Source: Minisyncoccota bacterium
GTDB taxonomy: Bacteria > Patescibacteriota > Minisyncoccia > Phycocordibacterales > UBA9973
Assembly: GCA_028718635.1 (NCBI GenBank)
Contig: JAQULK010000001.1
Coordinates: 543,834-607,833 of the forward strand
Reading direction: 5' to 3'
DNA length: 64,000 nucleotides
Shown here: positions 19,001-43,793 of the stretch, in pieces
Position numbering within the stretch: the first letter of the stretch is position 1
How the letters are laid out: the number at the start of each line of letters is the position of its first letter
Translations under genes and position numbers: made by a program
Notes under the pieces: generated by a model
The model's database searches: none
The model's input: the letters and a program-made list of their open reading frames with translations, nothing else
Told to the model about the DNA's origin: nothing

Positions 19001-20101
19001 TTAATTTTTGCGCTGAAATTTTGATATATTAAGCACTATGCCTATAGCCATCATATAAACCATAAGTGAAGTGCCTCCTTGGCTCATAAACACTAATGGA
19101 ACTCCTGTTAAGGGAAAAACCCCAACCACAGAAGCAATATGCATAAATGATTGCGCTGTAATTAGTATAACAATTCCATAAACTAAAAGTCCACTAAAAG
19201 CATCTGGGGAGCGATTGGCAATACGAAAACCCCGTAAAATAAAAAATAAATAAAGAATTATCGTAAAGACTGATCCGACAAAACCTAATTCTTCGCCCAA
19301 AACAGCAAAAATAGAATCCCCTTGCGGCTCAGGAAGATAACTGAATTTTTGAATGCTTTGACCGAATCCACGCCCTATAATACCGCCAGACCCTAAGGCG
19401 ATGAGAGATTGCTGGATTTGATAGGAAGATCCTTGCGCATCCTGCGATGGATTTATAAAAGTTTTTACCCGTTCCTGCAGATAAGGCGTAAAATATACAA
19501 GGGTTCCGAGTAGCAGTGTCGCCCCTAAAATCGTGCCTATAATATATTTAACAGGAACGCTTGAAATAAAAAGCATCGACACTCCGGTAACAGTAATCAA
19601 GATAAAGCTTTTTGTATCCGGCTGTTTTAATAGAACCACAGCAATGACTGCGAGCATCACTAAGAATGGCAAAATTCCAAATTTAAAATCCTTGACTCTG
19701 CTTTTCGCCCACGACAGCCAAGCGGCAAAATAAATCACAAAAGCAAATTTTAAAAATTCAACAGGTTGGAATTTTAGCAGGCCTAGGTCGATCCATCTTT
19801 CTGCCCCTCCATGACTCCACCCAAGTGCAGGAATAAAAACCGACGCAGTCAATAATATTGATCCCAGAAAAATTATTAAGGAAAATCTGCGCCAAAATTT
19901 ATAATTAATCTTAGAACAAAAGTACATGCCCAGAAAACCAATACCAAGACCTAAAACTAGTTGGCTAAAAAGCACTGAATAAAAAGTTTTTTCATTTCTT
20001 GCTAAAACTCCGAGCGATGCTGAAATAAACATAGCCACTCCCAGCGCTAATAAAATAAATGTAATTATAAGAAAAAATTTATCGGCCTTTTTTTCTTTCA
20101 T
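19001..20101 (-). CDS. ftsW: SEDS peptidoglycan polymerase FtsW
   Basis: GAERWI, FQPVEFLK, KQPD, YLPEPQGDSIF, PLTGVPLVFMSQGGTS; lies between mraY and murG. Confidence 0.95.
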   Translation of the reverse strand: MKEKKADKFFLIITFILLALGVAMFISASLGVLARNEKTFYSVLFSQLVLGLGIGFLGMYFCSKINYKFWRRFSLIIFLGSILLTASVFIPALGWSHGGAERWIDLGLLKFQPVEFLKFAFVIYFAAWLSWAKSRVKDFKFGILPFLVMLAVIAVVLLKQPDTKSFILITVTGVSMLFISSVPVKYIIGTILGATLLLGTLVYFTPYLQERVKTFINPSQDAQGSSYQIQQSLIALGSGGIIGRGFGQSIQKFSYLPEPQGDSIFAVLGEELGFVGSVFTIILYLFFILRGFRIANRSPDAFSGLLVYGIVILITAQSFMHIASVVGVFPLTGVPLVFMSQGGTSLMVYMMAIGIVLNISKFQRKN

Positions 20102-20216
20102 CCCGTACGAAATAGGACGCGTACGCTTACGTTATATCCTTTGTTTTGTTATTAATAATAGATCTTATCAATTTCATAATTTTATTTGTTTTATGCGTCC
20201 GCGATTTCGTTCGGGA
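20102..20216 (-). mobile_element. start-codon-targeted inverted-repeat element E3 (ATGAA duplicated)
   Basis: Minus strand ATGAA-TCCCGAACGAAAT...ATTTCGTACGGG-ATGAA (ftsW start). Confidence 0.75.
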
Positions 20217-20224
20217 TTCATTCT

Positions 20225-21280
20225 TTACCGACTAATAATTGCTAAAATTATGCCTATGATGGCAAACATAATTGAGAGAACCCAAAAACGCATCGTCACC
20301 TTATAGGATGGCCAGCCGATCGCCTGAAAATGATGATGAATAGGAGCAAGCCTAAACACTCTTTTGCCGTTTCTAATTTTCTTTGAAATCATTTGGATGA
20401 TAACCGAGCCAGAGGTGACCACGAGCAACATAGCAACTACAGGCAGAATCAAAACTGAGTCAGTTAAAAATGCCAATGTTGCCAAAGTAATAGTGAGCCC
20501 CATAATGCCCGTCTCTCCCATATAAAATCTAGCAGGAGGAATGTTGAACCAAAGGAAAGCCAAAATTGATCCGGTAATTACTCCGGAAAAAACAGCGAGA
20601 TCTATCTGATTATTGGCGAAGGCAATGGCGGAATATGCAGCAAAAATTGAGGCAAAAACTCCTCCTGAAAGCCCGTCGATGCCATCGATTACTCCTCCGG
20701 AAAAAGTCGCCAACGCCACTATTATAAAAAAAGGAATAATCAAAACGCCCAAATAAATTTCGCCACCGAACGGAATATGGATCGACGTCATGCCTAGTTT
20801 ATAAAAAAACCAACATCCTATAAAAAAAGATATCAAAAGTATAAAAAGAACTTTCCATTTGCGCCAAGATTTGTCATCCCGGGCAAATTTTCCAGATCCG
20901 TAAATTTGGATAAGATCATCCCAAAGCCCGACCAATGAACCCAAAAGAAGCGTGAAAAAAGGGATGAGCGCTTGGTTGCGGCTCAGAAAATTCATTTTTT
21001 CCGTATCGTTGGATGGAAATAGAACTAGAGCTAAATAAAAAAGAAGCGTGGTCAGAAGAGCGGAAGCCCAAATTATTATTCCGCCGACGCGAGGAGTTTT
21101 TGATTCTTCTTTTTCGTTGTGTATTTTATGAAAATCTGACGCGGACGTGTCCATGCTTCTGGAATATTTTTTCCACATTTTATATTTATAAAAAAAATGG
21201 GTGGCGATAGGAGTAAGCAAAAGACCTAAAAAAAATGCAAAAGCCGTAGGTATAAAAATCTTGACCAAATTTAGAAGCAT
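20225..21280 (-). CDS. mraY: phospho-MurNAc-pentapeptide transferase
   Basis: KTPRVGG, GLWDD, DGIDGL, FNIPPARFYMGETG, APIHHHF. Confidence 0.95.
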   Translation of the reverse strand: MLLNLVKIFIPTAFAFFLGLLLTPIATHFFYKYKMWKKYSRSMDTSASDFHKIHNEKEESKTPRVGGIIIWASALLTTLLFYLALVLFPSNDTEKMNFLSRNQALIPFFTLLLGSLVGLWDDLIQIYGSGKFARDDKSWRKWKVLFILLISFFIGCWFFYKLGMTSIHIPFGGEIYLGVLIIPFFIIVALATFSGGVIDGIDGLSGGVFASIFAAYSAIAFANNQIDLAVFSGVITGSILAFLWFNIPPARFYMGETGIMGLTITLATLAFLTDSVLILPVVAMLLVVTSGSVIIQMISKKIRNGKRVFRLAPIHHHFQAIGWPSYKVTMRFWVLSIMFAIIGIILAIISR

Positions 21281-21323
21281 TTAATCAGTATAACATTAAT
21301 TTTCTTTTGATTAAAATATATGG

Positions 21324-22190
21324 TTGTGTTATTGTTTCCGTGTGAACAAAATTAACTCAAAACTCGTCCTTGCTTTAATTTTATTGATTTTTATATCTCT
21401 GCCAGTGTTCACCACTTCTCTTTTGGATTTTGAAGAACAAAAAACAAACGAAGAAAATTACCAGAAACTTTTACAAGAAGAATCAACCCGCAAAGAAATA
21501 GCGAAGAAAATTCAAGAAGAGGCGGAAGAAAAAAAATATTTAACGGGAAAATTCGACCCTAGCGTTAGAAAAGATTTTGTTTTGATACCTGCGATGTATA
21601 CTACCAATCAAAGCAAAATGTATTTGAGAAAAGAAACTTTTGACGCCTTTTTAAAAATGCGAGATGCCGCAGATAAGGGTGGAATTGGCCTTAGAATAGC
21701 TTCAGCTACTAGAAACTTTGTTTATCAAAAAAATATTTGGAATAATAAATGGACAGGGGTTATGGAAGTAAATGGAGAAAATCTTGCAAAAACTATTCCG
21801 GACAGCTTGGAAAGGTTTATGAAAATATTGGAATATAGCGCCGTTCCAAGCACATCCAGGCATCACTGGGGTACAGACATAGACATAAACGATGCTACCC
21901 CAGAATATTTTGAAAGCAAATTGGGTAAAAAAACTTATGAATGGCTAGTAAAAAATGCTCCATTGTTTGGTTTTTGCCAACCTTATAATCTAAAGGATGA
22001 AAATAGGCCGACGGGCTACAATGAAGAAAAATGGCATTGGTCATATTTGCCTCTCTCAAAAACTTTTACAGAAGAATACAAAGATTTAATAAAAGACGAT
22101 GATATAAAAGGATTTTTGGGGGATGAAAATGTCGCCGGACAGGATTTAATAAATAATTATGTGCTTGGTATCAATCCTAATTGTCTTTAA
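21324..22190 (+). CDS. D-Ala-D-Ala carboxypeptidase (VanY/M15B family)
   Basis: TM anchor, SATR, SRHHWGTDID, EKWHWSY. Confidence 0.9.
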   Translation: MCYCFRVNKINSKLVLALILLIFISLPVFTTSLLDFEEQKTNEENYQKLLQEESTRKEIAKKIQEEAEEKKYLTGKFDPSVRKDFVLIPAMYTTNQSKMYLRKETFDAFLKMRDAADKGGIGLRIASATRNFVYQKNIWNNKWTGVMEVNGENLAKTIPDSLERFMKILEYSAVPSTSRHHWGTDIDINDATPEYFESKLGKKTYEWLVKNAPLFGFCQPYNLKDENRPTGYNEEKWHWSYLPLSKTFTEEYKDLIKDDDIKGFLGDENVAGQDLINNYVLGINPNCL

Positions 22191-22216
22191 TTTATTTTGA
22201 ATTACAAAAGAAAAGT

Positions 22217-22849
22217 TTATGTTTGTAATTCATATTTTTTAAAATATTTTTTATAAAGACCGTACTTCGATAATATTTCCCGCAAAGTCAAAGTAGTTGC
22301 AATGGAGATAAAAATCGCAACACTAATATTTATAAACATTAAAAAATAAAAAGTGACAGCACCTGCAAAAGCCGCCATAATATAACCGGATTTTTTATGA
22401 AAAGCGAATGGCGCATCACCCATCACTGCATCGCGAAGCACTCCGCCTCCAAAACCGGTAAACATCCCCATAAAAATACACACTAACGGAACAATAATTC
22501 CATGGCCATTGTCATTAAATAAATAATTATAAGTTACGGAAGTTCCAATAATCGAAAAAGCGGCCAAGCCGATTGAATCCAAAAAACGGAAAAAGGTAAA
22601 CCATTTCTTAAAAACATGCGGTACCAGATAGGTCGCGATGCTCCCAATAACCGCAACCAAAAGATAATTCGGATCTTTGAGATAAAAAACTGGCGTGCGC
22701 CCGATAACTAAATCCCGAAAAGTTCCCCCGCCTACCGCAGTAATAACTCCTAAAAGCACTACTCCAAAAACATTCAACTCGCGCCCCCGAGCCTTAAAAG
22801 CCCCGGCTACAGCGAATGCTAATGTTCCAATTAGATCAAGGATATACAT
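22217..22849 (-). CDS. trimeric intracellular cation channel (UPF0126) membrane protein
   Basis: LDLIGTLAFAVAGA, TAVGGGTFRD, LDSIGLAAF, GFGGGVLRD. Confidence 0.92.
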   Translation of the reverse strand: MYILDLIGTLAFAVAGAFKARGRELNVFGVVLLGVITAVGGGTFRDLVIGRTPVFYLKDPNYLLVAVIGSIATYLVPHVFKKWFTFFRFLDSIGLAAFSIIGTSVTYNYLFNDNGHGIIVPLVCIFMGMFTGFGGGVLRDAVMGDAPFAFHKKSGYIMAAFAGAVTFYFLMFINISVAIFISIATTLTLREILSKYGLYKKYFKKYELQT

Positions 22850-22900
22850 AAATATATTCTACCATAATCACCACCCCCTGCTGACATTAAAAACAGAACT

Positions 22901-22936
22901 TACTACAAAACCAGACGACCGCATCATTTCATAGTA
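22901..22936. repeat. hairpin X, copy 1 (3' of paralog 2)
   Basis: TACTACAAAACCAGACGACCGCATCATTTCATAGTA; matches 51811-51844. Confidence 0.75.
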
Positions 22937-22941
22937 TTTAA

Positions 22942-24705
22942 TTAATAAACTTCCTGTTGATAGCACTTCTCACAATAAATTATTTCTGGTCTATCTGGTG
23001 CATAACTCGTCTCAAATTCTACTTCGCATTTTCCTGCTCCATGAAAATGATTTTGTTTATCACACATGCAGACTCTGTGCCAAAGTTTCATTGGATTTTT
23101 TTGTTTCATTCTTTGATAGTGCCTACAGTTCGGACACAACCTAGGTAAAGGCAAATTCATTCTTTTGTAAAATTGCAAATCTTCAGGAAGAATTCTGAAG
23201 GCGGTCATACAATCCTCCTCGCACCCTCCTTCATGCTCACAGCCTATCACTTCTTCTAAAATTGAGTCCTCGACTTGTAGAATACTGTCCGGAAGTTCGT
23301 TCGATTTTTTTGTAATTTTATAATCTCTTTTTTCACGATCTTTCCAATTATAACCACTTGCTAGAGCTTTTTCTTTATTCAGAGGAAAATATTCTTGCGC
23401 AGTAGTTTCATTATAGCCATATGGTGAAAATTCTACAGGAAAAAATTCACCGTATTTATATACTCTTTCTTTTTTATCCATATAAGGCATATCATTCATA
23501 TGTTTGATTATTTTAGGAACCAGTTCTTCGTATTCTTCTTTTGTGTATTGCTTGTTTAAGATGCAATATTCCTTCTTTTTTAAACCAACGCAAGCAAAAT
23601 TATTTTCTCCTCCGACAACCCTGATGCTATAATCTATATTTCTCGAACTACTCCAAACTCCCCAACTATGCTTAATATTATATGTACCATTTCCACACTG
23701 AAGACATTCATATACAAGCTCAATATTATCTCCATAATGAGTAAAATCATAAGTAGTTCGTACTGGTCCATTTGAAACAAAAGAGCAAAATTTTGAATCT
23801 TCTGTATTTATGACGCAAAAACATTCTTTGGCATTTTTGGAATGTACTATATAGTCACCAGTCACATTTGAATTTTGAACACCAAAATAATATTTTTTAG
23901 GAAATTTTTTCCAAAACTTCTTAGCTTTTTCTTTCAATGCACTTATATTTTTATAAGAATCCAATCCGAAAGATTTTAATTTTTCTTCGTATTCTTCTTT
24001 GGTGTATGGGGCATTCCAAATGTGATAACTTTTTTTATGGAGATTTACACAACCAAAACAATTATTGCATCCGCGAAGACTATAAGAAAAATATACTTCC
24101 ACGCAATCTTCACAATTTTGAGAGAAAAAAGTCCGATAACAATTTACACTAGTTACTGTTTCATAACTAAGTTCTACTCTATCTACCATAGTAATGTCCT
24201 GCGAATCTTTTGAGTGGAAAACTCCGCTTCCGTAAGATATGTCTTCGTCAAAGGTTCCATCATGAAGCAAGTAACAATTTTTCATATCATTTGCCATATT
24301 GCAATACTGAGAATTAATCATAGTCATACTTATTGCGAAAAGATTACCAATGGGAACTTTAAGAAAAAGTTCAAAAATTTGATCAAAAAATGGTCTGGAA
24401 AAATCAATATCCATTGCATAATCAGAAGCATTCCAATCATCTCCCCACCAGCATTTATCGCAATATATAGTATCTTTTTTATAATCTTTGCTATAAATAG
24501 AAATTATTTTCTTTTTACACAAACCGCATTCTCTATAATGAAGACTCTTTTCATTGCGCCATGCTAAACGTCTTTGTAATCTACACTCTGGACAAAAAGT
24601 CGGCACCGGCACTTTTATTTTTTCATAAAATCCAAAATCATTCGGTTCTATTGCAAAGTCTTTTTTGCAATTTTGGCATATTTTGTTTTCTTTTTTATGT
24701 TCCAT
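22942..24705 (-). CDS. Cys-rich family paralog 2
   Basis: Same N-terminal, central and C-terminal motifs as paralog 1. Confidence 0.9.
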   Translation of the reverse strand: MEHKKENKICQNCKKDFAIEPNDFGFYEKIKVPVPTFCPECRLQRRLAWRNEKSLHYRECGLCKKKIISIYSKDYKKDTIYCDKCWWGDDWNASDYAMDIDFSRPFFDQIFELFLKVPIGNLFAISMTMINSQYCNMANDMKNCYLLHDGTFDEDISYGSGVFHSKDSQDITMVDRVELSYETVTSVNCYRTFFSQNCEDCVEVYFSYSLRGCNNCFGCVNLHKKSYHIWNAPYTKEEYEEKLKSFGLDSYKNISALKEKAKKFWKKFPKKYYFGVQNSNVTGDYIVHSKNAKECFCVINTEDSKFCSFVSNGPVRTTYDFTHYGDNIELVYECLQCGNGTYNIKHSWGVWSSSRNIDYSIRVVGGENNFACVGLKKKEYCILNKQYTKEEYEELVPKIIKHMNDMPYMDKKERVYKYGEFFPVEFSPYGYNETTAQEYFPLNKEKALASGYNWKDREKRDYKITKKSNELPDSILQVEDSILEEVIGCEHEGGCEEDCMTAFRILPEDLQFYKRMNLPLPRLCPNCRHYQRMKQKNPMKLWHRVCMCDKQNHFHGAGKCEVEFETSYAPDRPEIIYCEKCYQQEVY

Positions 24706-24714
24706 GGTCTAATC

Positions 24715-24734
24715 TGCTTTAGTTAAGTAAAGTA
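24715..24734. promoter_or_regulatory. HisR-box-like palindrome between paralogs 3 and 2
   Basis: Minus strand TACTTTACTTAACTAAAGCA, 18/20 identical to 31241-31260. Confidence 0.6.
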
Positions 24735-24735
24735 A

Positions 24736-26439
24736 TTAATACACTTCCTGTTGATAACATTTCTCGCAGTAAATAATCGGAGCGTAAGATTCATCATATA
24801 CTGTTTCAGCTTCTATATTGCATTTTGAACAAAAACGTTTTATTAATCTAAAAGGCGAACGTTTTGCTAAACGTCGCATATGCCTGATATAAAAACTCGC
24901 GTGTGGAAGAGGTAAATCCATTTTTCTATAAAATGAAAGTTCGTTCTCTGTTATTTTATATGCCCCTACAGATTTCGAATTATTTTTTTCTTCGCATTCT
25001 ATAATTTCCTTTAAAATTGAATCATCGGTTTCGCTAATGGTTTCAGGCAACTCTGAACTTTTAATCGTTGTTTTATAATTTTTTTCTTCTCTGTCCTTCC
25101 ATTTATACCCTTTTGCTAAAACCTCTTCTTTTGACAAAGGAAAGAAGTCTGCCGCTGCTGTCTCATTAAAAGCAAAATCAGAAAAAGAGTTTGGAAAATG
25201 TTCGCCAAATCGATACTCTAAACCTTGATCAAAATAAGGCATTTCTTTCATTTGTTTTATGATTTTTTCTTTCAGCACTTCATATTCCTCTTTATTATAC
25301 TTTTTATTCAAAATTGAGTACTCTCCTTTTTTTAAACCGACACATCCAAAACAATTCCGTGCCCCTGGACAGGAATTGCAATAATATAAATCCGAGGCTC
25401 CCATCCAACACTGAGTGCAAAAGTAAATTCTAGCGATATCTAGACCGCAGTTTTCTGATTCATATACTAGTTCAGCCTTATTCCCCCATTCAAAAAAATC
25501 CATGCAGTCTTCCAAGCCGAAAACCGAAAAAAGATACTTTCCATCTTTTACATTTACACAATCAAAAGATTGATGTACGTTTTTGCAGTTCGTAAACCAA
25601 TTGCCAGAAACATCACTAGATTTTATAGAAGCAACCGCTTTTTGAGGGAATTTTTTTCTAAATTCTTCAAATTTTCTATCCATTTCCTTAATGCCAGAAT
25701 AAGTGTTCAATTTAAGACCCTTTATCTTTTTAAAATATTCTTCTTTAGAATAAGCTTCGTTAAAAATATAAAATTCCTTATTATTCAAATTAACGCAACC
25801 TACACAATCAGAACAATTTCGGCAAGCATACAAAAACGAAGAATCCCTGCAATCATGGCTCTCCATACTAAACCTAAGGTTATAACAATTTCTGCAATTT
25901 ATACATTCATAACAAAGCTCGCTTTTGTCAGTCCAAGCGCAGTCGGAACAATCTCTTATGTTCTCGGCAATATAGCTATAAAAAGAATTTTCTGCATTGG
26001 TGGCTCTGAAAACCATATAGGAATTCCTTGGACTGGTAACACGATGAGTGTAAGGGCTATTGATCGCAAAACCCTGCCTGACAAGACTCATTCTCGGAAC
26101 CTTGTTTTGTAATTCCAAAAATTGTTCAAAGAATGGACGATTTTCGTCGTAATCCATTCCATATGAAGACGGATCCCATTTATCTGAATACCAAATATCT
26201 ATATCATAAACTGGAAATATCGTTTTCTCGGGATACATACTAAAAATTTCTTTGTTCGTAAAATCACATTTGCGCTTATAAAGAATAAGCTCATTGGTGC
26301 TCATTAGGCGTCTCATTAGCCTACACTGCGGGCAAAAAGTCGGTGGTGGTACTTTTATCTTTTCATAAAACCCAAAATCATCCGGCTCAATTACGAAATC
26401 TTTTTTACAATTTTGGCAAGTTTTAATTTCTTCTTTCAT
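24736..26439 (-). CDS. Cys-rich family paralog 3
   Basis: Family motifs; ends in a clean CxxC-x17-CxxC. Confidence 0.9.
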   Translation of the reverse strand: MKEEIKTCQNCKKDFVIEPDDFGFYEKIKVPPPTFCPQCRLMRRLMSTNELILYKRKCDFTNKEIFSMYPEKTIFPVYDIDIWYSDKWDPSSYGMDYDENRPFFEQFLELQNKVPRMSLVRQGFAINSPYTHRVTSPRNSYMVFRATNAENSFYSYIAENIRDCSDCAWTDKSELCYECINCRNCYNLRFSMESHDCRDSSFLYACRNCSDCVGCVNLNNKEFYIFNEAYSKEEYFKKIKGLKLNTYSGIKEMDRKFEEFRKKFPQKAVASIKSSDVSGNWFTNCKNVHQSFDCVNVKDGKYLFSVFGLEDCMDFFEWGNKAELVYESENCGLDIARIYFCTQCWMGASDLYYCNSCPGARNCFGCVGLKKGEYSILNKKYNKEEYEVLKEKIIKQMKEMPYFDQGLEYRFGEHFPNSFSDFAFNETAAADFFPLSKEEVLAKGYKWKDREEKNYKTTIKSSELPETISETDDSILKEIIECEEKNNSKSVGAYKITENELSFYRKMDLPLPHASFYIRHMRRLAKRSPFRLIKRFCSKCNIEAETVYDESYAPIIYCEKCYQQEVY

Positions 26440-26448
26440 TTTTTTTAT

Positions 26449-26484
26449 ATTATCACTTTATAACGGCCGTTAAATTTTGATAAT
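26449..26484. repeat. hairpin Y, copy 1 (3' of paralog 4)
   Basis: ATTATCACTTTATAACGGCCGTTAAATTTTGATAAT; matches 47319-47353. Confidence 0.75.
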
Positions 26485-26486
26485 GC

Positions 26487-28238
26487 TTAATACACTTCCT
26501 GCTGATAACATTTCTCGCAGTAAATTATTTCTGGCCTCTCTGGTGCATAGCTCGTCTCAAATTCGACATCGCACTTCTCTGTCCCATGAAAATGATTTTG
26601 TTTATCACACATGCAGACTCTGTGCCAAAGTCTCATGGGATTTCTGTATTTAAGCCTGCGTGCGTGTCTACAATTCAGACAAAGGTTCGGAAGCGGTAAA
26701 TTCATGCGTCGATAAAATTGCAACTCGGCTTGAATGATCTTAAATGCGCCAGTGCATTGATCATTGCAGTTGCCGTCATGTTCGCATTTTATGACTTCAT
26801 GTATAATATCATCCTGCACCTCTGAAATAGTATCGGGTAAATCGCTCACATTTTTTGTGATTTTATAATTTCTCTTTTCGGTTTCTCTCCACGAATATCC
26901 CAAAGCCAATGCTTGTTCTTTGGTCAATGGAAAGAATTCTTGAGCGGTGGTTTCATTGTAGGCAAAAGGACAAGTTTCTATCGGGAAAAATTCTCCATAT
27001 TTATATATCAGGCCTTGCTTGTCTGTGTAAGACATATCATTCATATGGTTTATAATTTGTTCTCTTAATTTAAAATATTCTTCTTTTTCATATTGCTTAT
27101 TGAAAATACAATATTGCTTTTTTCTTAAACCGACACAGCCGAAAATATCCTTTGAATTGACACAAAACATAGAATACTCCACATTTTGGCAATTTGTGAT
27201 TATCCAATGAGAGAATTTTATATTCGCGTTCTGGTCACCGCTTTGCAATGTCTCATACAATAGCGAGGATCCTTGGCCAAACGTGCTGTGGTCGTAAGCA
27301 TCGGTTAATTTTCCTGTTATAAAACTGCAAAATTTACTGTCTTCGATCTCAAAACCAATGAAGCAATTTTTTGCATTTTTTGTGTCGTTTAAATAATCGC
27401 CAGACGATCCGATATTTCGCCATCCATGATAAAATTTTTGAGGATAATTTTGCGACAAAGATTCGACTTTCTCTTGTGCTGTTTTTATCTTTTTTAATGA
27501 ACTTGGGTATAGTTCTGCTAATTTCTTATTATAATCTTCCTTGGAATACTGTTCATTAAAAATGCAATAACTTTTTTTATTTAAATTTATACAGCCGAAA
27601 CAATCATTGCACCCTGAGCAATTTTTAGAAAACATAACATTATGGCAACTATCGCAATCAATACTGAAAAATGTATTGTAGCATCGATTGCAATTCATAG
27701 TTTCATAGCAAAGCTCGCAATGGTTCGCCATTAAATTATCCACGCTGTCCTTGCTATGATTCACGAAACTACCATAAATCAAATTTTCTCCATAATCAGA
27801 ATAAGTAACCATGTATGAATTTTTTTGCCAAGCAGACATGTTGACGTATTCAGTATTAATCCAAGTCGAATACAATCCATATAAATTCATTATGGGAACT
27901 CTGTGATACAGATCATTTATTTGCGAAATTACATTCTGTTTTGGATTAAAATCAACTCCATAATCTATCGCGTCCCAGTCATCTCCCCACCAGCACGAAG
28001 TACAATAAACATGAATTCCAGAATCTTCTGCAAAGATAGCAATCGTCTTTTTATCGCATTTTTCACATATTCGATGATGGAAAGTTCTTTCGTTTCTTCG
28101 AGCCAGCCGACGTATCAAACGGCACTCAGGGCAAAAAGTCGGCAGTGGCACGTTCATTTTTTCATAAAATCCAAAATCATCTGGCTCAATCGTAAAGTCT
28201 TTTTTACAGTTTTGGCAAGTTTTAATTTCTTGATTCAT
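26487..28238 (-). CDS. Cys-rich family paralog 4
   Basis: Family motifs. Confidence 0.9.
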   Translation of the reverse strand: MNQEIKTCQNCKKDFTIEPDDFGFYEKMNVPLPTFCPECRLIRRLARRNERTFHHRICEKCDKKTIAIFAEDSGIHVYCTSCWWGDDWDAIDYGVDFNPKQNVISQINDLYHRVPIMNLYGLYSTWINTEYVNMSAWQKNSYMVTYSDYGENLIYGSFVNHSKDSVDNLMANHCELCYETMNCNRCYNTFFSIDCDSCHNVMFSKNCSGCNDCFGCINLNKKSYCIFNEQYSKEDYNKKLAELYPSSLKKIKTAQEKVESLSQNYPQKFYHGWRNIGSSGDYLNDTKNAKNCFIGFEIEDSKFCSFITGKLTDAYDHSTFGQGSSLLYETLQSGDQNANIKFSHWIITNCQNVEYSMFCVNSKDIFGCVGLRKKQYCIFNKQYEKEEYFKLREQIINHMNDMSYTDKQGLIYKYGEFFPIETCPFAYNETTAQEFFPLTKEQALALGYSWRETEKRNYKITKNVSDLPDTISEVQDDIIHEVIKCEHDGNCNDQCTGAFKIIQAELQFYRRMNLPLPNLCLNCRHARRLKYRNPMRLWHRVCMCDKQNHFHGTEKCDVEFETSYAPERPEIIYCEKCYQQEVY

Positions 28239-28821: not shown

Positions 28822-29592
28822 TTAAGATGCAGTTTCAGAAATTTCTTGCATAATTTTTTCTTGCTTAGTCATTATAATATCTCCTCCTTCAGTTTCTTGG
28901 ATTGCATCAAGTATTCCGTTTCTGATAAGCTCCAGCATAGCCAAAAAACCAACAATCACAACTATCTTTTCTTCTCTTGATGCCTGCTTTCCTCCTCCGC
29001 TAAAATCCTTAAAATTCATCTTAAGAGAACTTTTAATTCTTTCTGTCAATTTATCTATCATTTCCTCGAGGCTTATGACCTTTTGCACTTCTACTTTCGG
29101 CAGAAATACTTTTTGAGGCATAGCGCCTACCGCATTCCGGGCGAAAATCATCATGGAGTCCTTAGTAATTCTATCATCCGGTAAAAATACTAAAACATTA
29201 TTCTTCCTTTCAAGCGGAGCAAAAATTATTTTTTGACCAAAATTATTTTTTATATTTCCTCCTAGCTTGGTGAAAAGTTCGTAAAGGCGCAGCCTTTCTT
29301 CTAAATTTTTAATATCTCCTTCTTCTTCGTTTGTCAGATCTAGGTTTGGCAATAAGGATTTAGATTTGATTAAAAGCAAAGAAGCCGCTACTGAGACAAA
29401 ACTCGAAATTTCAGAATAATGCAAACCTCCCAATTTATTCATGAAATTCAAGAAATCTTCAGTCACCGCGGAAAGGGATACATCATTAATATGAAGCTTT
29501 CGCTTTTCGATCAAGCTCAAAAGCAAGCCAAACGGCCCTTCAAAGCTATTAGTTTTTATTTGAAAAGCAGAATTATCTGTCTGTGTTTCCAT
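28822..29592 (-). CDS. scpA: segregation and condensation protein A
   Basis: FEGPFGLLLSLI, LLLIKSKSLLP, FLAMLEL. Confidence 0.95.
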   Translation of the reverse strand: METQTDNSAFQIKTNSFEGPFGLLLSLIEKRKLHINDVSLSAVTEDFLNFMNKLGGLHYSEISSFVSVAASLLLIKSKSLLPNLDLTNEEEGDIKNLEERLRLYELFTKLGGNIKNNFGQKIIFAPLERKNNVLVFLPDDRITKDSMMIFARNAVGAMPQKVFLPKVEVQKVISLEEMIDKLTERIKSSLKMNFKDFSGGGKQASREEKIVVIVGFLAMLELIRNGILDAIQETEGGDIIMTKQEKIMQEISETAS

Positions 29593-29711
29593 CACGTTAG
29601 AAGCAGATCGCGATCAACTCACGTTTCTGATATTTAAAGTTATTAATTTTTTTATTATTTATTTTCATATTAATATTTATTTTTAAATTGCGATCGCGGC
29701 TTCTAACGGGA
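29593..29711 (-). mobile_element. start-codon-targeted inverted-repeat element E4 (ATGGA duplicated)
   Basis: Minus strand ATGGA-TCCCGTTAGAAGC...GCTTCTAACGTG-ATGGA (scpA start); supplies the pepA stop codon. Confidence 0.75.
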
Positions 29712-31151
29712 TCCATATCCTTCGATAAATTTGTATAAAAGTCTCACGGGCGTACCGAGAGCCCCAGCAGCCAAACTCTCTCCCGCAGTTGATGTCATTC
29801 TCGGAGCTATATCCAAATGCGCCCACTTCGGAGTTTTTTCCTCTTCTTTTGTATTTTTTACAAATTGATACAAAAAAATTGCTCCATAAATCGCTCCGCC
29901 GTAACGAGAATCCTTATTGTGAACATTTGTAAGATCCCCTATAGATCCTTTTATCTCATTTTCATATTCCTCCCACATTGGCAAACGCCAAATATAATCT
30001 CCAGTTTTTTCTGCTATTTCCTCAAGGTTTTTCACCAATGCATCATTATTAGAAAAAATAGCTGAAGCCCTCTCTCCGAGCGCCACCGCCGCAGCTCCAG
30101 TCAAAGTGGCAACATCTATTATTACCTCTCCATTATATTTTCCTGCATAAGAAAGTGCATCTGCTAAAATTACCCTACCTTCTGCATCAGTATTTAATAT
30201 TTCAATCGTTTGCCCTGACATAGAGCGAACCACGTCTCCAGGTCGATAACTTTTTCCTGATGTCATATTTTCCACAGAAGGAGTAAGCCCGACTACATTC
30301 TTTTTTAATTTCATTTTTGCAGCAAGAGCTATCGTATGTATCACTGCCGCACCGCCTGACATATCCATATTCATTCCGAGAAGCGAAGAAGAAGGTTTTA
30401 GATTTATTCCCCCAGCATCAAAAGTTACCCCTTTACCGACAAGCACAATGGGTTTCTCTTCTTTTTTGCCACCCTTATATTCCATAATAATAAATTTTGA
30501 TTCTTCGTCTGATCCTCGTCCGACAGAAAGAATCGCTCTCATGTTTTGTTTCTCCATTTCTTTCTCTCCTAGGACTGTCACTTTTACTGGCAGATTCTTC
30601 ACCGCTTCTTTTGCCTTTTGAGCCAGAATTTGCGGAGTCATGTCTCCTCCTGGAGTATTTGATAACGTTCTAGTTTTATTTACCTCTTCGGCAATAATAT
30701 TTCCTTTTAAAATTGCTTTTTGAGTTTCTTTGTTTGTTCCAAAAATAATAATCTCTTTAATAGTATTAAATCCTTCCTTGGGCGGTTTTTTATATTCATT
30801 AAATTCATAATTGGCGAAATCAAGCTGAGTACCGATTATTTCTCCCAACTCTAAATCTGAAATCTGTGCGAGGTCTTGCCTCGCACAAGTTTTGAAATCA
30901 TTAAAATTAAAAGCTATTTTTTCTACTTTTGTACTTTTCGCCAAAGCAACCATCTTGCGCACAAGCAAAAAGAGCTTCCGCAAATTCATTTTTTCCTTTT
31001 CTTCGCATTTTAAATAGAGGGTTTTTACACCATTTCCTGCCTTGCCGGCAGGCATGTCCCTAACAATTTCGTCCTTATTTTTTGGGTCAATAGAAACAAA
31101 GAGCACCTCACCTTTTATGTCTTTTGCATTGTCCTTAAAAGTTATTTTCAT
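29703..31151 (-). CDS. pepA: leucyl aminopeptidase (M17)
   Basis: VGKGVTFDAGG, DMSGGA, NTDAEGRV, DVATLTGA, HLDIA. Confidence 0.95.
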   Translation of the reverse strand: MKITFKDNAKDIKGEVLFVSIDPKNKDEIVRDMPAGKAGNGVKTLYLKCEEKEKMNLRKLFLLVRKMVALAKSTKVEKIAFNFNDFKTCARQDLAQISDLELGEIIGTQLDFANYEFNEYKKPPKEGFNTIKEIIIFGTNKETQKAILKGNIIAEEVNKTRTLSNTPGGDMTPQILAQKAKEAVKNLPVKVTVLGEKEMEKQNMRAILSVGRGSDEESKFIIMEYKGGKKEEKPIVLVGKGVTFDAGGINLKPSSSLLGMNMDMSGGAAVIHTIALAAKMKLKKNVVGLTPSVENMTSGKSYRPGDVVRSMSGQTIEILNTDAEGRVILADALSYAGKYNGEVIIDVATLTGAAAVALGERASAIFSNNDALVKNLEEIAEKTGDYIWRLPMWEEYENEIKGSIGDLTNVHNKDSRYGGAIYGAIFLYQFVKNTKEEEKTPKWAHLDIAPRMTSTAGESLAAGALGTPVRLLYKFIEGYGSR

Positions 31152-32869: not shown

Positions 32870-33312
32870 TTAAGTAAAGCAAGTTCGAGCGCAGCTAGGG
32901 CAGCTTCTCCTCCGACATGGATTCTTTGCCTTGCTTGCTTGATATTATTTACCGTCAGCACCCCAAAACCGACGGGAATATTGTCTTCAATCATAACTTT
33001 CAGAACCCCTTCTTGCGCCATTTTGCAGACGTAATCAAAATGCGGAGTATCACCTTTTATAACACAACCTAAAGCAACAAGGAAATCATATTTTTTCGAT
33101 TTTGCCATTTTATGCAAAGCAAAAGGAATTTCTACAGACCCAGCGACAGACATTTTCTCAATATTTTTATCAGCAATATTGCAATTCTTCAGCATCTGAA
33201 GCGCGTTTTGCAAAAGAGGCTCCGTGATCTCGGAATTCCATCTAGCAACCACGATGCCGACTTTTAGGTTTTTTCCGTTTAAATATTTATATTTTTTATT
33301 TTTTATATGCAT
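32866..33312 (-). CDS. ribH: 6,7-dimethyl-8-ribityllumazine synthase
   Basis: [34 protein letters not shown]; start trimmed to MHIK at 33312. Confidence 0.95.
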
Positions 33313-33389
33313 CCCGTACGAAATTATATTAACTTTGTAAATTGACCCATCCACAACACGAAATTTTATTAAAAAGATTTCGTACGGGA
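33313..33389 (-). mobile_element. start-codon-targeted inverted-repeat element E5 (ATGCA duplicated)
   Basis: Minus strand ATGCA-TCCCGTACGAAAT...ATTTCGTACGGG-ATGCA (ribH start); supplies the last codons and stop of ribE. Confidence 0.75.
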
Positions 33390-33950
33390 TGCATATTTAG
33401 CCAGTATATCAAATTCCAAATTAACTTCATCTTCTTCTTTTTTAAATTTTAAATTTGTGTGTTTTAGGGTATACGGTAATATTTTTACAACAAATAAATC
33501 TTTGAGAACCTCGGCGACAGTCAGGCTTATGCCTTCTATCGCGATCGATCCCTTATAAACCAAAAATTTTTTGAATTTTTTATCAGAAACCTTTATATAA
33601 AATTCTTTAGAATTTCCTTCTTTTTTTATGCTGATAATTCTGCCTTTTCCATCAATATGCCCGAGCACTAGGTGCCCGTCGAGCCTGTCGGACAAACGCA
33701 TTGATTGCTCAAGATTCACAATGTCGCCTTTCTTCAAGAGTCCTAAATTTGTAAGTTTTAGTGTTTCTGGCATATATTCAAATGAAATATTTTTGTTATT
33801 TTTTTTAACAGTGGAACAAACGCCATTGATAGAAATACTTTCTCCTAATTTTATTTTTCCTAAATTATTTAAAATATCAACAAAAAGACCGCCTTGCGCA
33901 GATTTTACTCTTTTCACTTTTGAAGTTTTTTTTATTATGCCTGTGAACAT
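33369..33950 (-). CDS. ribE: riboflavin synthase
   Basis: MFTGII, SISINGVCST, GHLVLGHIDG, KGSIAIEGISLT, VNLEFD. Confidence 0.95.
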   Translation of the reverse strand: MFTGIIKKTSKVKRVKSAQGGLFVDILNNLGKIKLGESISINGVCSTVKKNNKNISFEYMPETLKLTNLGLLKKGDIVNLEQSMRLSDRLDGHLVLGHIDGKGRIISIKKEGNSKEFYIKVSDKKFKKFLVYKGSIAIEGISLTVAEVLKDLFVVKILPYTLKHTNLKFKKEEDEVNLEFDILAKYASRTKSF

Positions 33951-39531: not shown

Positions 39532-39581
39532 GATTTTGAGAAGTTCGGCCTTCTCTTGCCTTGCTTGGAAAAGTGCCAAGC

Positions 39582-39764
39582 TCACCTAGAAAGTCCAGAG
39601 TCATTAATCTCTGGATCATTATCCAAAGATCCACATATCGCTAAAAGGATTCTGCATCCTCGACAATACCCACGCCAAACGCTGGGCATGTCCTCAATAA
39701 AGACAACCTTACCCTTGCATCTTGGGCAAGATTTTAATGGAAGTTGAATTCTTTCTTCTGACAC
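39582..39764 (-). CDS. 60-aa zinc-ribbon protein
   Basis: SD AAGGAGGT, GTG start, CPRC...CRGC. Confidence 0.65.
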   Translation of the reverse strand: MSEERIQLPLKSCPRCKGKVVFIEDMPSVWRGYCRGCRILLAICGSLDNDPEINDSGLSR

Positions 39765-39783
39765 AACGACCTCCTTTAAAGAA

Positions 39784-39810
39784 CAAAAATCAGCGCTTTG
39801 TTTTGCGCTG
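39784..39810 (-). terminator. Trp attenuator terminator
   Basis: CAGCGC-AAAACAAA-GCGCTG-ATTTTTG; antiterminator TTTTGCGCT lies in the leader. Confidence 0.75.
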
Positions 39811-39849
39811 TTTAATTGATTGCTTATAGATTAGGTTTATAAAAAGAAA

Positions 39850-39930
39850 TCAACAGAATAGCGCAAAAAGTTTTGTCTTTGTGCTCCACCAAGAATTCAT
39901 TAAAATATTTATTTCAAAATAATTTTTCAT
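39850..39930 (-). CDS. Trp attenuator leader peptide
   Basis: MKNYFEINILMNSWWSTKTKLFALFC with tandem TGG TGG. Confidence 0.8.
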   Translation of the reverse strand: MKNYFEINILMNSWWSTKTKLFALFC

Positions 39931-39993
39931 ATTGTTTATGTTTATTTATGCATTTATACTTAGATTCCTTATATTATTTACATATATATCTCT

Positions 39994-40039
39994 GTATCCA
40001 TGTACTAGTACATAGTAGTAGAATAAAAAAATAAAGCAA
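39994..40039 (-). promoter_or_regulatory. promoter with TrpR-type operator
   Basis: -35 TTGCTT, 16 nt, -10 TACTAT, overlapping palindrome ATGTACTAGTACAT (40000-40013); GTATC-N8-AGTAC resembles the TrpR GTACT-N8-AGTAC consensus. Confidence 0.65.
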
Positions 40040-40115
40040 GATATGCTCTTGTGGATAACCCCGCACTATAGCAAAGCTCAGTACAGGGCAAACTTTTTCA
40101 TTCATTTATTAGCCA

Positions 40116-40409
40116 CTACTTGCTTAACTTTTTTAGCATTAAATTAAAACCCCCATTCTTATTGCGAAGCTCGCGAGATCCTCGAGTGACAGTACTTATT
40201 CCAAGTCCTAAATCCCCTGCTACAGACCTATGAGTCTCTCCTTTGTTTAATTTTTTAACTATTTGCCACCTTAAGGCCATATCCTCAAGCTCAGAAGGTG
40301 TTGTAATATCTACTAAAAATTCTGTAAAAAGATTTTTATCTTTTCCAGCTTTTACTAAGATTTCTACAAGTTCTTTTTTATATTCTTTTAGTTTTTCTCT
40401 TTTGTTCAT
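40116..40409 (-). CDS. trpR: Trp repressor
   Basis: TPSE...LRWQIVKKL..GETHRSVAGDLGLGISTVTRGSREL; directly downstream of trpS. Confidence 0.92.
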   Translation of the reverse strand: MNKREKLKEYKKELVEILVKAGKDKNLFTEFLVDITTPSELEDMALRWQIVKKLNKGETHRSVAGDLGLGISTVTRGSRELRNKNGGFNLMLKKLSK

Positions 40410-40476
40410 CCCGGTACTAAAATTTTAAATATTAATCCTTATCTTTATTTCCCGTAATCAAAAATTTAGTACGGGA
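40409..40476. repeat. TCCC...GGGA inverted-repeat element, copy E2
   Basis: Fills the whole gap from the trpS stop to the trpR start; ends match E1. Confidence 0.8.
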
Positions 40477-41436
40477 CTAGTACACATTCACCCCGATCTT
40501 TTCTCGCACCTCGGCCATTTTTTTTGAAGCGACAATTTTTGCTTTTTCACCACCATTTTTAAGAATTTCTAGGGCTTTCGGAATATCTTTGGCAAATTCT
40601 TTTCTTTTTTCTCGAAGCGGGGCGATGAATTTTTCGATATCCTCTATCAGCATTTCTTTGAGTTCTTTATATTTGCCGGATTTTTCCGCATAAATCTTTT
40701 TCAATTCTTCTTCAGAACGGAAAAGTTTATGGATGGCGTAAACATTCTGAGGAATTCCCCCGCTGGAATCTGTCACAATACTCATCACGCATTTTTTTAT
40801 TTCTTCATATTCGGCAAAAAGTGGAATGGTGTTGCCATAACTCTTGCTCATTTTTCTCCCATCTGTACCGGGCACTATGGCGACATCTTTCAGAATCATT
40901 GACTCTGGCAATTTAAAGATTTGACCTCCTTCTCCGTAAACATTATTAAATTTTTCTGCTATATCTCGAGCTATTTCCACATGCTGTTTTTGATCAGCGC
41001 CTACTGGCACAAGGTCGGGACCATACATCAAAATATCCGCCGCCATCAAAACTGGATAATTGAAAGTGCCGACATCTATTTCTTTATTCTTCGCCTCGGC
41101 GTCTTTAAAGGCGTGCGCTCGCATCAGATACGGCATCGTGATGATGGTGTCAAAAATCCAAGTAAGCTCAGTATGTTCAGAAATATCGCTTTGTTTGAAA
41201 AATGTTATCTTTTGAGGATCGAGACCAATTGCTAAATAATCAAGCAAAATACTTGTGATGTTTTCCTTCATTTCACTGCGATTCCTAAGGGAATGCAACG
41301 CATGATAATCAGCTATAAAAACATAGCCATCATGCTCATTTTGGAGGTCGACGAATTGCTTCATCGCCCCAAAATAATTGCCGATATGAGGTTTTCCAGA
41401 GGGCTGAACGCCTGATAAGAATATCTTTTTTGACAT
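40477..41436 (-). CDS. trpS: tryptophanyl-tRNA synthetase
   Basis: SGVQPSG, HIGNYFG, YPVLMAADIL, VPVGADQ, KMSKS. Confidence 0.98.
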   Translation of the reverse strand: MSKKIFLSGVQPSGKPHIGNYFGAMKQFVDLQNEHDGYVFIADYHALHSLRNRSEMKENITSILLDYLAIGLDPQKITFFKQSDISEHTELTWIFDTIITMPYLMRAHAFKDAEAKNKEIDVGTFNYPVLMAADILMYGPDLVPVGADQKQHVEIARDIAEKFNNVYGEGGQIFKLPESMILKDVAIVPGTDGRKMSKSYGNTIPLFAEYEEIKKCVMSIVTDSSGGIPQNVYAIHKLFRSEEELKKIYAEKSGKYKELKEMLIEDIEKFIAPLREKRKEFAKDIPKALEILKNGGEKAKIVASKKMAEVREKIGVNVY

Positions 41437-41456
41437 GTTTATATATTTTACAAGGA

Positions 41457-41552
41457 AAAAGCAGATTATGCAAAGAATTTTTGAGCCTTCGCCCTCGGAG
41501 ACAAAAAGACAGGGAACCCACGACTCTTAAAATTCTTTCATAATCTGCTTTT
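41457..41552. repeat. long hairpin element family C, copy 2
   Basis: Arms AAAAGCAGATTATG/CATAATCTGCTTTT around CGCCCTCGGAGACAAAAGACAGGGAACCCAC. Confidence 0.8.
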
Positions 41553-41560
41553 AATTGTCC

Positions 41561-41586
41561 ACCTGCCTGCCTGCCGGCAGGCAGGT
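41561..41586. repeat. CCTGCCTGCCGGCAGGCAGG REP-like palindrome
   Basis: Same 20-mer as 17190-17209. Confidence 0.85.
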
Positions 41587-41658
41587 TAGTAACATTTTTT
41601 ACACTACTTTACGCACTTTTAAGCTTTGACAATTTTTCTACTATGCTAGAATGGCGTA

Positions 41659-43053
41659 ATGGCAAAAGTACTAAAAAATAATAATCTCCGCATTCCTCCT
41701 CAAAGCATCCCCTCCGAACAAGCAGTCCTCGGTTCTATTATGCTCCGCAAAGATGCCATGCATGAGGTTGAAGACATGATAACTTCGGATTCTTTTTACG
41801 TTGAAAAACACAAAAAGATTTTTCAGGCAATGCTCGACTTGTCGTTAAAAAATGAACCGATAGACATGCTTTCGCTTTCCACAAAATTAAAAGAACGAAA
41901 GCTCCTTGAAGCAGTCGGTGGCAACCAATATTTAGCTGAAATTGTAAATGTTGTTCCTTCTAGTACGAATATCAAACATTATGCAGACATAGTCCAAAAA
42001 AAATACGTTCTTCGAAGCCTGATAGAAGCGGCAGATTATGTATCAGAACTCGCTTTTGAAGAAGGCGACGACCACATGAATGATATTTTAGATATGGCGG
42101 AAAAGAAAATATTCGGCGTAGTCTCCTCTCCCAAAAATCAAAAATATGTAAACTTAAAAGATGCCTTGCCAGAAGCCTATGAGCGTTTGGAAAAATTACA
42201 TGAAAATAAAGGCATGCTTCGCGGACTCGCAACTGGATTCAAAGAATTAGACACAATGCTTTCTGGGTTGCAAAAATCTGATTTGGTTATTCTGGCAGCA
42301 AGGCCGAGTATGGGTAAGACTACCCTCGCCCTAGATATAGCGCGTATGTCTGGAGTATTACATGAAAAATCTATTTTAATATTTTCTTTAGAAATGTCTT
42401 CCCAGCAATTGGTGGACAGAATGCTCTCCGCTGAGTCCCGAGTGAATGCTTGGAATTTACGCACAGGAAGACTTTCTTCCGACCGAGAATTTTCTCAATT
42501 GCGAGACTCTTTGGATAAATTGGCCAAAGCAAAAATTTATATTGATGATCAGCCGGGAAATTCTATTGTCAAAATGAAAGCGCTTTCTCGCCGACTGAAG
42601 GCAGAAAAAGGGCTCGATCTTATCGTGGTGGATTATTTACAGCTGATGACTACCTCTAAAAATTACGATTCGATGGTCAATCAGGTTACAGAAATTTCCA
42701 GATCTTTAAAAAGTCTAGCCAAAGAATTAGACGTGCCAGTCTTGGCGCTTTCCCAGCTTTCTCGTGCAGTGGAATCTCGCGGCGGCAAGCCTCGTCTTTC
42801 TGATCTTCGCGACTCTGGATCCATTGAGCAAGACGCAGACGTCGTAATGTTTATTCACCGTGAAGATAGAGGAAAAGATGAATCAGAAAAAACAAACATT
42901 GCTGAGATTTTAGTAGAAAAACATCGCAATGGCCCGACTGGGAAAGTGGAACTCTATTTTGATGAAAAGACTACTACATTCTTGAACCTTGAAAAAAGCA
43001 ATTTGAGTGAATTTACTCCATCAAAAATCAAGGGAGATCTTGATGAATTCTAA
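41659..43053 (+). CDS. dnaB: replicative DNA helicase
   Basis: PPQSIPSEQAVLG, ARPSMGKT, FSLEM, VDYLQL, LSQLSR, LRDSGSIEQDAD, KHRNGPTG. Confidence 0.98.
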   Translation: MAKVLKNNNLRIPPQSIPSEQAVLGSIMLRKDAMHEVEDMITSDSFYVEKHKKIFQAMLDLSLKNEPIDMLSLSTKLKERKLLEAVGGNQYLAEIVNVVPSSTNIKHYADIVQKKYVLRSLIEAADYVSELAFEEGDDHMNDILDMAEKKIFGVVSSPKNQKYVNLKDALPEAYERLEKLHENKGMLRGLATGFKELDTMLSGLQKSDLVILAARPSMGKTTLALDIARMSGVLHEKSILIFSLEMSSQQLVDRMLSAESRVNAWNLRTGRLSSDREFSQLRDSLDKLAKAKIYIDDQPGNSIVKMKALSRRLKAEKGLDLIVVDYLQLMTTSKNYDSMVNQVTEISRSLKSLAKELDVPVLALSQLSRAVESRGGKPRLSDLRDSGSIEQDADVVMFIHREDRGKDESEKTNIAEILVEKHRNGPTGKVELYFDEKTTTFLNLEKSNLSEFTPSKIKGDLDEF

Positions 43054-43061
43054 AATATGGA

Positions 43062-43181
43062 TCCCGTTAGAGATCGAATAGTTTGTAAATAGAATAACAT
43101 GTTAATATAACTCTATGTATAAAATTTTTATTAAAAGTAATATAACTACGGAAATGCATAGCATTTCCTATCTCTAACGGG
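43062..43181 (+). mobile_element. start-codon-targeted inverted-repeat element E6 (ATGGA duplicated)
   Basis: ATGGA-TCCCGTTAGAGAT...ATCTCTAACGGG-ATGGA (recR start). Confidence 0.78.
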
Positions 43182-43793
43182 ATGGACATCATAGATAAAT
43201 TAACTGAAGTTTTTAAGGAATTCCCCGGTATCGGAGAGAGGCAAGCAAAACGCTTTGTTTACTTTTTAATGTCTAAGAACCCTGCTTACAGTGAAAACTT
43301 AGCAGAGTTGATAAAAGATTTAAAAAAAGAAACAACTCAATGCAAGGAATGTTTTAGATTTTTTATTTTAAATTCTAAAAAAGAAAATTCGTGCAATAAT
43401 TGCTCCAGCCTAAGTACGGATTCTTCTACCCTAATGATCGTGGAAAAAGATTCTGATCTAGAATCAATCAAGAAAAGCGGAGTCTATAGTGGAAAATATT
43501 TCATCCTAGGAGGATTGGTGCCTATAGTGGAAAAGACTACTAAAAGCAGAGTGCGCATTGAAGAGCTAAAAAATAAAGTCTTATCTAACAAAAATATAAA
43601 AGAGATAATTCTGGCTTTTTCGATAAGCCCTCAAGGCAACCACACCGACCAATATGTTCGTGAACAATTAAAAGATATTACAGAAAAATTAAATATAAAA
43701 ATTTCTTCGCTCGGCAGAGGCCTTTCTACTGGCACTGAATTAGAATATTCTGACAACGATACTCTCAAAAATGCATTGAAAAACAGACAATGA
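43182..43793 (+). CDS. recR: recombination protein RecR
   Basis: FPGIGERQAKR, C4 zinc finger, toprim, GTELEYSD. Confidence 0.95.
   Translation: MDIIDKLTEVFKEFPGIGERQAKRFVYFLMSKNPAYSENLAELIKDLKKETTQCKECFRFFILNSKKENSCNNCSSLSTDSSTLMIVEKDSDLESIKKSGVYSGKYFILGGLVPIVEKTTKSRVRIEELKNKVLSNKNIKEIILAFSISPQGNHTDQYVREQLKDITEKLNIKISSLGRGLSTGTELEYSDNDTLKNALKNRQ

Follow-up and report, generated by a model that had tools for sequence, protein, structure and literature searches.

A widespread family of start-codon-restoring mobile elements in Patescibacteria and its long form with a GIY-YIG nuclease gene

Ssn is a GIY-YIG protein of 94 amino acids that cuts single-stranded DNA upstream of a directional hairpin, and does so on one strand only (PMC11893778). 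Chenal et al. (2025) suggested that units in which such a gene lies between two repeats (NTS-ssnA-NTS) are similar to insertion sequences, which in the sections of that paper available to us is proposed rather than demonstrated (PMC11893778). Other small GIY-YIG proteins, the prokaryotic Slx1-like or UPF0213 proteins, are described as vertically inherited repair enzymes in the available part of PMC1564403. Here we report on an element that shares some features with these proteins and their repeats, and others with bacterial miniature inverted-repeat transposable elements (MITEs). It was noticed in a 64,000-nucleotide stretch of DNA from a Minisyncoccota bacterium (assembly GCA_028718635.1, contig JAQULK010000001.1, positions 543,834 to 607,833), which we call the window. 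There, a reading of the sequence alone, which we call the original prediction, had proposed a MITE-like element that inserts exactly at start codons, duplicates a 5-mer and regenerates the gene. We find that the element family is real, mobile and widespread in Patescibacteria, and that it fits no known family; a literature search, made at the level of search listings, returned no description of it. Its long form encodes a small GIY-YIG nuclease, which we consider the probable mobiliser of the short copies, or miniatures.

The pattern ATGNA-TCCCG…CG(G/T)G-ATGNA, in which the second 5-mer begins a gene, is present four times in the window as described, with inserts of 115, 119, 77 and 120 nt. 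Gene calls and Pfam place the downstream ATG at the start of ftsW, scpA, ribH and recR, respectively (at recR, Pfam gave Toprim, and the name is taken from the original prediction). The arms of each copy pair with one another, as had been claimed (RNA folding, z -3.1 to -7.7). The interiors had been called unrelated, which is true among these four copies, which fall in four subfamilies, but each has relatives in the genome or the genus. An Rfam search of the window matched a tRNA and nothing else. Two copies of a second class, at 40409-40476 and 429-497, had been overlooked.

The host assembly (761 kb in 4 contigs, 98.7% complete, 89% coding; hereafter G000) holds 756 genes by crude calling. 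A census with a paired-end pattern over the whole genome, in which a start was defined as the ATG of an open reading frame (ORF) of at least 61 codons, returned 70 candidate copies, compared with 1, 1 and 4 in three shuffled versions of contig C1. The expectation that copies lie mostly at start codons, and not away from them, held genome-wide: 63 of the 70 end on such an ATG. The other seven lie elsewhere, and one of these (C1:184593) was judged a chance match. Four further copies were found beyond the census, three on the starts of long ORFs and two within the window. The total is about 73 copies among the 756 crudely called genes, and about 65 genes bear a copy on their start codon. Our sample of the genus comprised 120 genomes, which through kinship are not independent, and one of which (G076) is left out where stated. 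Miniatures were found in 70 of them (69 of 119 without G076), while a reversed-pattern control matched 3. With a stricter pattern, miniatures were found in 29 of 300 genomes of the phylum, and the control matched none.

The element ends in 13-bp terminal repeats, TCCCG…CGGGA. Where a copy lies away from an ATG, its duplicated 4-mer is preceded by G or T and not by A; the terminal A therefore belongs to the element and replaces the A of the ATG. The insertion point is fixed at A^TG, and the duplication begins at the T of the ATG, with its other edge variable. Exact duplication was seen in 41 of the 63 start-codon copies; counted without the A, its length was 4 nt in 31 copies, 5 nt in 8, and 3 nt and 7 nt in 1 copy each. 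The predicted duplication of ATGNA thus needs amending. The variable fourth base does follow the gene, in 41 of 45 ATG-led cases, but the duplication is TGNA, mostly 4 nt with a range of 3-7. A 5-nt duplication, or a 2-nt duplication with longer repeats, was ruled out; ATGAG, ATGAT and ATGGG are duplicated whole, and the non-ATG sites lack the A. The arms covary at positions 7, 8, 11, 12 and 13 in a set of 132 ungapped copies, and the pairs are nearly always Watson-Crick, with few G-U. The element has a single polarity, with no reversed A1-A3 copy relative to the gene among the 63. In subfamily A2, interiors are 75% alike and arms 97-99% alike. A second class (B), defined by the cases at ribH, has a 4-nt tag (C(T/G)TG in those cases, CYTG for the class) and a hairpin between the A and the TG, and no duplication; the duplication is confined to class A. 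Long and miniature copies also stand in tandem arrays (L036, L104, L125, L147 and G000 C2:6559-6948), in several of which the units share the duplicated 4-5 nt.

The proposal of a mobile, MITE-like and start-codon-restoring element is borne out by relatives in which the orthologous site is empty: 31 of 34 at recR and 15 of 17 at ribH, with ftsW and scpA given in Table 1. The remaining two ribH relatives carry a class B element at the identical point. At recR, the first sample gave 29 relatives, of which 28 lack an element and the other, G004, bears a class B copy at this ATG; among five element-rich genomes picked afterwards, three are empty, G090 has an A2 copy and G044 an A3 copy. With the A4 copy of the window, four subfamilies sit on the recR ATG in four species, so this one start codon has been occupied repeatedly and independently. 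Some A2 insertions are common to several species, which reflects shared inheritance. At two empty ribH starts (G042 and G050; L178 and L180) there is a six-nt tandem repeat that may be an excision footprint or slippage, and that we did not count as evidence. Contigs of four DNA runs contained, among the matches listed, no joint that skips a whole element, which carries no weight either way.

All 47 copies flanked by ATGVA are at starts, though the genome offers 303 intergenic ATGVA sites as against 363 starts (p 5e-13); its coding DNA holds 6376 ATGNA sites. Among 55 class A sites, 46 have A as the fifth base, compared with half of all starts, and GG lies directly 5' of the target ATG in 13 of 41 cases, compared with 34 of 699. 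This enrichment of GG may in part consist of relics of earlier copies or of tandem arrays. The predicted bias to coupled starts is also present, in that the upstream gene ends no more than 22 nt from the element in 43 of 63 cases, versus about 29% of all starts. No lagging- or leading-strand bias was found beyond that of the genes themselves (46/58 versus 499/658, p 0.63). The start-codon bias is probably a sequence preference plus selection, and we rate the chances as even that the element actively targets start codons.

The original prediction had suggested looking for long versions with cargo or a transposase. A 278-bp form does exist, but its cargo is a GIY-YIG nuclease and not a known transposase. 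G000 has two long copies of 276-278 bp, each with one ORF that encodes an 84-amino-acid protein; this protein matches PF01541 above the cut-off, and its nearest PDB entries are UPF0213 proteins (1zg2 at E 2.7e-9). A search of a species collection confirmed at least 446 relatives of the nuclease, and among the matches listed the nearest named carriers are mostly Nomurabacteria and other Patescibacteria. The best 80 relatives were kept for locus analysis: the repeats enclose 78 of them, and 65 restore an ATG, on 57 different host N-termini. In this set, a few long copies from outside Patescibacteria have CCCCG ends and other targets. The ORF is intact in 72 of the 78 long copies, residues Y6, Y17, R27, H31 and E63 are conserved, and the ratio of nonsynonymous to synonymous change (dN/dS) is about 0.11 (0.073/0.647, 272 pairs). 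Within the genus, 18 of 19 parsed long copies rebuild the host ATG. Miniatures occur in 18 of the 19 genus genomes with a long copy, compared with 51 of the 100 without (p 0.0002; kin not independent, G076 left out).

One long copy (L109) apparently inserted in a GTG start and converted it to ATG. At G329:C4:123980 and G345:C18:50210, the same terminal repeats surround an apparent tRNA gene, which suggests cargo capture. G000 also encodes two near-identical small GIY-YIG genes (C1:72550 and C1:119598) that lie between different repeats (AAAGGTGTGG / CCCCACA hairpins), possibly a second nuclease-repeat element. Another small GIY-YIG gene (C1:381146) lies between direct repeats that resemble the 5' end of a tRNA with an inserted hairpin, just ahead of a tRNA-like sequence.

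RNA folding places the stem over the AU of the host start codon. In the long form, the stop codon of the nuclease ORF is at position -4, +4 or +5 relative to the host ATG, overlapping it or 4-5 nt before it, in all 60 copies in which both ORF and ATG are intact. The 13 A2 copies in G000 always have an ATG 23 codons before the right-arm TAA, and changes in length occur upstream of that ATG only. The resulting mini-ORF ends 4-5 nt before the host ATG and is stop-free in 12 of the 13, versus 5.4 expected under neutral change (P=0.0002). Elsewhere (27 of 30 loci, with the own genome and G076 dropped), it is present in 26 of 27 copies, with 23 codons in 20 and the other two frames open in 1 and 0, although several of these copies represent a single insertion passed on by descent, and the last codons were set by the search pattern. 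Because changes in A2 are spread evenly over codon positions, it is the open frame that is kept and not the peptide. Judged from these counts, A2 interiors are not junk and their mini-ORF is maintained under selection; this mini-gene likely lets the host gene still be translated. In A1, a coupled mini-ORF is present in 14 of 19 copies, compared with 4.0 expected. Four of the six A3 copies have a 16-codon ORF that stops 25 nt early. Five of the seven A4 copies have an extended -10-like motif, on the sense strand only, versus 0.4 expected; no promoter motif was found in A1-A3, and a generic promoter scan at recR was not above shuffled sequences. Class B and a group of 'other' copies showed neither a coupled mini-ORF nor a promoter-like motif. 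The upstream ORF that had been noted at recR is present (Table 1). The accompanying idea that the hairpin juxtaposes old and new starts, by bypass or excision, found no support; an internal mini-ORF beside the host ATG, or the promoter-like motif of A4, is the better supported route.

In our preferred reading, to which we assign a probability of roughly 70%, the miniatures are gene-less versions of the 278-bp element that are moved in trans by its 84-residue GIY-YIG nuclease. The nuclease would recognise the terminal stem on one DNA strand and nick beside it, in the manner of the related Ssn nucleases. At the target, the DNA would be opened at A^TG in a (GG)ATGVA context, and host repair would copy the element in, leaving one precise and one variable junction. 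Such a pair of junctions, together with one polarity, is a better fit to a nick in one specific strand, with copying and repair by the host thereafter, than to symmetric cut-and-paste. After insertion, ribosomes on the internal ORF of A1, A2 or the long form would open the stem that masks the start-codon AU and resume initiation 4-5 nt further on, and in A4 an element-supplied promoter would keep the host gene on. A broader picture could equally turn out right or wrong: a new class of bacterial transposon of about 278 bp, whose nuclease mobilises it, finds translation starts and poses as an extra cistron, and whose miniatures evolve throw-away mini-genes or promoters that keep essential operons working, with about 1 gene in 12 of the genome depending on an element-supplied start codon.

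Several findings weigh against the nuclease as mobiliser or against coupling as the general means of expression. In the 51 of 100 genus genomes cited above that hold miniatures, the strict pattern detected no long copy. Joining strands is beyond a hydrolytic nuclease, and host enzymes would therefore be needed. The tag of class B is similar to the ends of one Y1 transposase of G000, and 22 of the 63 starts lack an exact duplication (8 class B, 5 ATG-led with mismatches, and 9 decayed or other). A directly coupled mini-ORF is found in 0 of 8 class B copies, 0 of 9 in the 'other' group and 1 of 6 in A3. The A2 counts from other genomes carry the limits given with them, and we saw no selection on the sequence of the A2 mini-peptide and no third-position bias. 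Finally, two 54-nt copies lie in frame within a metK-like gene (G000 C1:101937-103139) and a few copies are intergenic, so targeting is not absolute.

We consider it unlikely that these are ordinary MITEs of a missing or undetected DDE insertion sequence, with the GIY-YIG gene as a passenger and starts as the places where insertions survive. In the available part of PMC3184786, bacterial MITEs such as Correia, RUP, ERIC and Nezha resemble our element in being 50-125 nt long, with terminal inverted repeats, target duplication and stem-loop RNA, as well as in having empty and filled sites, ORF fusions and promoters. By description the element is indeed a MITE: it is short, has terminal inverted repeats, no transposase, empty sites and, in class A, a duplication. 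The perfect terminal repeats and the modal duplication of 4 nt are DDE-like, many genomes have miniatures and no detected long copy, and the in-frame copies in metK imply that selection filters sites. However, no DDE transposase was found between element ends, and every long copy examined holds the nuclease. Searches of the 98.7% complete G000 for reverse transcriptase (PF00078), DDE_Tnp_1, DDE_3 and IS1595 gave no match, other transposase families not having been searched, and the two rve proteins of this genome, as well as its three Y1 proteins, are flanked by ends unlike those of the element. MITEs of the DDE type have a DDE partner where this element has a GIY-YIG nuclease, and its strict one-way polarity, its duplication of 3-7 nt with one fixed edge and its tag-only class are not expected of a symmetric DDE reaction, although the polarity could also stem from selection. 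About 90% of copies are on start codons, the mini-ORF is selected for coupling, and the confinement of ATGVA-flanked copies to starts, when intergenic sites are nearly as numerous, also argues against survival as the whole explanation.

Less probable again is that a host REP- or TIR-associated (terminal inverted repeat) tyrosine transposase of the HUH, Y1 type moves the hairpins as single strands, at least in class B. Of the three Y1 proteins of G000, one has the flanking sequence GGTACCTGACCCC, which is close to TACCTGTCCC, the left end of class B, and the 4-nt tag, single polarity and missing duplication of class B are like those of REP-type elements (the available text of PMC3733652). More broadly, REP/REPIN-RAYT systems, TIRtrons (PMC3733652, same text) and IS200/IS605 share with our element hairpin ends, one polarity, a 4-nt tag without duplication (as in class B) and tandem arrays. 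They differ in that no HUH enzyme lies inside the element and in that class A duplicates its target, a duplication that is real and follows the target in 41 of 45 cases. Moreover, full-length nuclease copies also occur with a YTG-type left end (L095, L105), and the TCCCGTTAGA/TCCCGTACGA arms flank none of the three Y1 genes. A Y1 (RAYT-like) gene at G000 C1:406520-407192 lies between inverted ends with a core similar to the left tag of class B.

Least probable of all is a role for the hairpins as RNA structures of the host, either regulatory or spliced out, or as signals for ribosome bypass, by which the old ATG would be joined to the new one. In favour of this view, the arms are far more conserved than the interiors, some insertions are common to several species, the stem covers the start-codon AU and direct repeats flank the hairpin. 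Against it, patchy presence, different subfamilies on one ATG and a nuclease-bearing long form point to a selfish element, G-U is rare among the arm pairs, nearly all of which are Watson-Crick, class B offers no direct repeat for splicing or hopping, and a selected internal ORF argues for reading through the element and not for its removal.

Among described systems, Ssn with its NTS repeats and SRM motifs (cd10448) invites the closest comparison with a nuclease-mobilised element. According to the sections of PMC11893778 available to us, the two are alike in having a single-domain GIY-YIG gene of fewer than 100 amino acids between repeats that also occur alone in many copies, in a stem core (TCCCG…CGGGA) that is common to the element and to NTS/dRS3, in being directional, and in catalytic Y6, Y17 and E63/64 at corresponding positions. 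They differ in that each end of the element supplies one arm of a single long-range stem that encloses all of it, while the NTS is a complete short hairpin. Those sections make no mention of duplications, empty sites, insertion at start codons or mini-ORFs (PMC11893778). The SRM motif was found in 0 of 70 elements and 0 of 80 nuclease loci, with 1 match in G000. Three SRM-flanked proteins of the same phylum have a Trp-rich tail that the element nuclease lacks, and form their own weakly supported branch (82/64) in a tree that is largely unresolved. With no SRM and no Trp-rich tail, and with those three proteins on a branch apart, the element is probably not a member of the Ssn group, but it likely works in a similar way. 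Neisseria-type NTS hairpins and Ssn-like genes were seen in 53 of 301 genomes of the phylum, and not in G000.

The Slx1-like and UPF0213 proteins (PDB 1zg2, 1ywl) are likewise minimal stand-alone GIY-YIG domains in the available part of PMC1564403, but the element nuclease lies within mobile ends at no fewer than 57 different sites. A homing endonuclease element has one fixed site and no duplication, in contrast to these 57 sites with duplications. A retro-element or group II intron finds no reverse transcriptase match (PF00078) in G000.

If the nuclease is the mobiliser, its transposition chemistry would lie outside the DDE, HUH, serine, tyrosine-recombinase and reverse transcriptase types that are generally known, in an element far shorter than typical insertion sequences. 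In that case, the duplications and empty sites would be direct genomic evidence for the idea, derived from Ssn, of mobile hairpin-flanked GIY-YIG genes. Insertion at start codons with translational coupling would be a safe-harbour strategy in a genome that is 89% coding, and the mini-ORFs amount to a natural, often repeated experiment on reinitiation in uncultured Patescibacteria. The elements also remodel protein C-termini, as six upstream genes end within a copy. Two of these cases had been noted before: the stops of pepA and ribE are supplied by the element, giving the C-termini …EGYGSR* and …KYASRTKSF*.

Table 1. Element copies and associated features in the window (positions of the 64,000-nucleotide stretch)
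Feature	Position	Strand	Remarks
Class B element, 69 nt, CCTG tag, without duplication	429..497	-	on the start of a 289-amino-acid ORF; outside the range of the original prediction
Element, 116 nt, subfamily A3	20101..20216	-	last A is the A of the ftsW ATG; 3/3 informative relatives empty
A3 mini-ORF, 16 codons	20127..20177	-	stop lies 25 nt short of the ftsW ATG; 4/6 A3 copies agree in its length and position
Original ATGAA of ftsW (A + duplicated TGAA)	20217..20221	-	
Element, 120 nt, subfamily A2	29592..29711	-	contains the pepA stop, and its last A begins the scpA ATG; absent in 5/5 relatives
A2 mini-ORF, 23 codons	29597..29668	-	stop lies 4 nt short of the scpA ATG
Original ATGGA of scpA (A + duplicated TGGA)	29712..29716	-	
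Element, 78 nt, between ribE and ribH	33312..33389	-	contains the ribE stop, and its last A begins the ribH ATG
Original ATGCA of ribH (A + duplicated TGCA)	33390..33394	-	
Class B element, 68 nt, without duplication	40409..40476	-	on the start of a Trp-repressor-family gene; absent in 3/3 relatives
Original ATGGA of recR (A + duplicated TGGA)	43057..43061	+	opens the upstream ORF MDPVRDRIVCK
Element, 121 nt, subfamily A4	43062..43182	+	ends match those of the GIY-YIG long form; its last A begins the recR ATG
ORF, 20 codons	43115..43177	+	ends at the right-arm TAA, 4 nt before the recR ATG

The window also contains GC-rich palindromes of unrelated families, at 30865 (within pepA), 31717, 32192, 38157, 39422 and 41561. 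Four paralogous Cys-rich proteins of 567-587 amino acids, three of them in tandem, are encoded at 17223-18974 and 22942-28238; the one that was scanned had no Pfam match at 1e-8.

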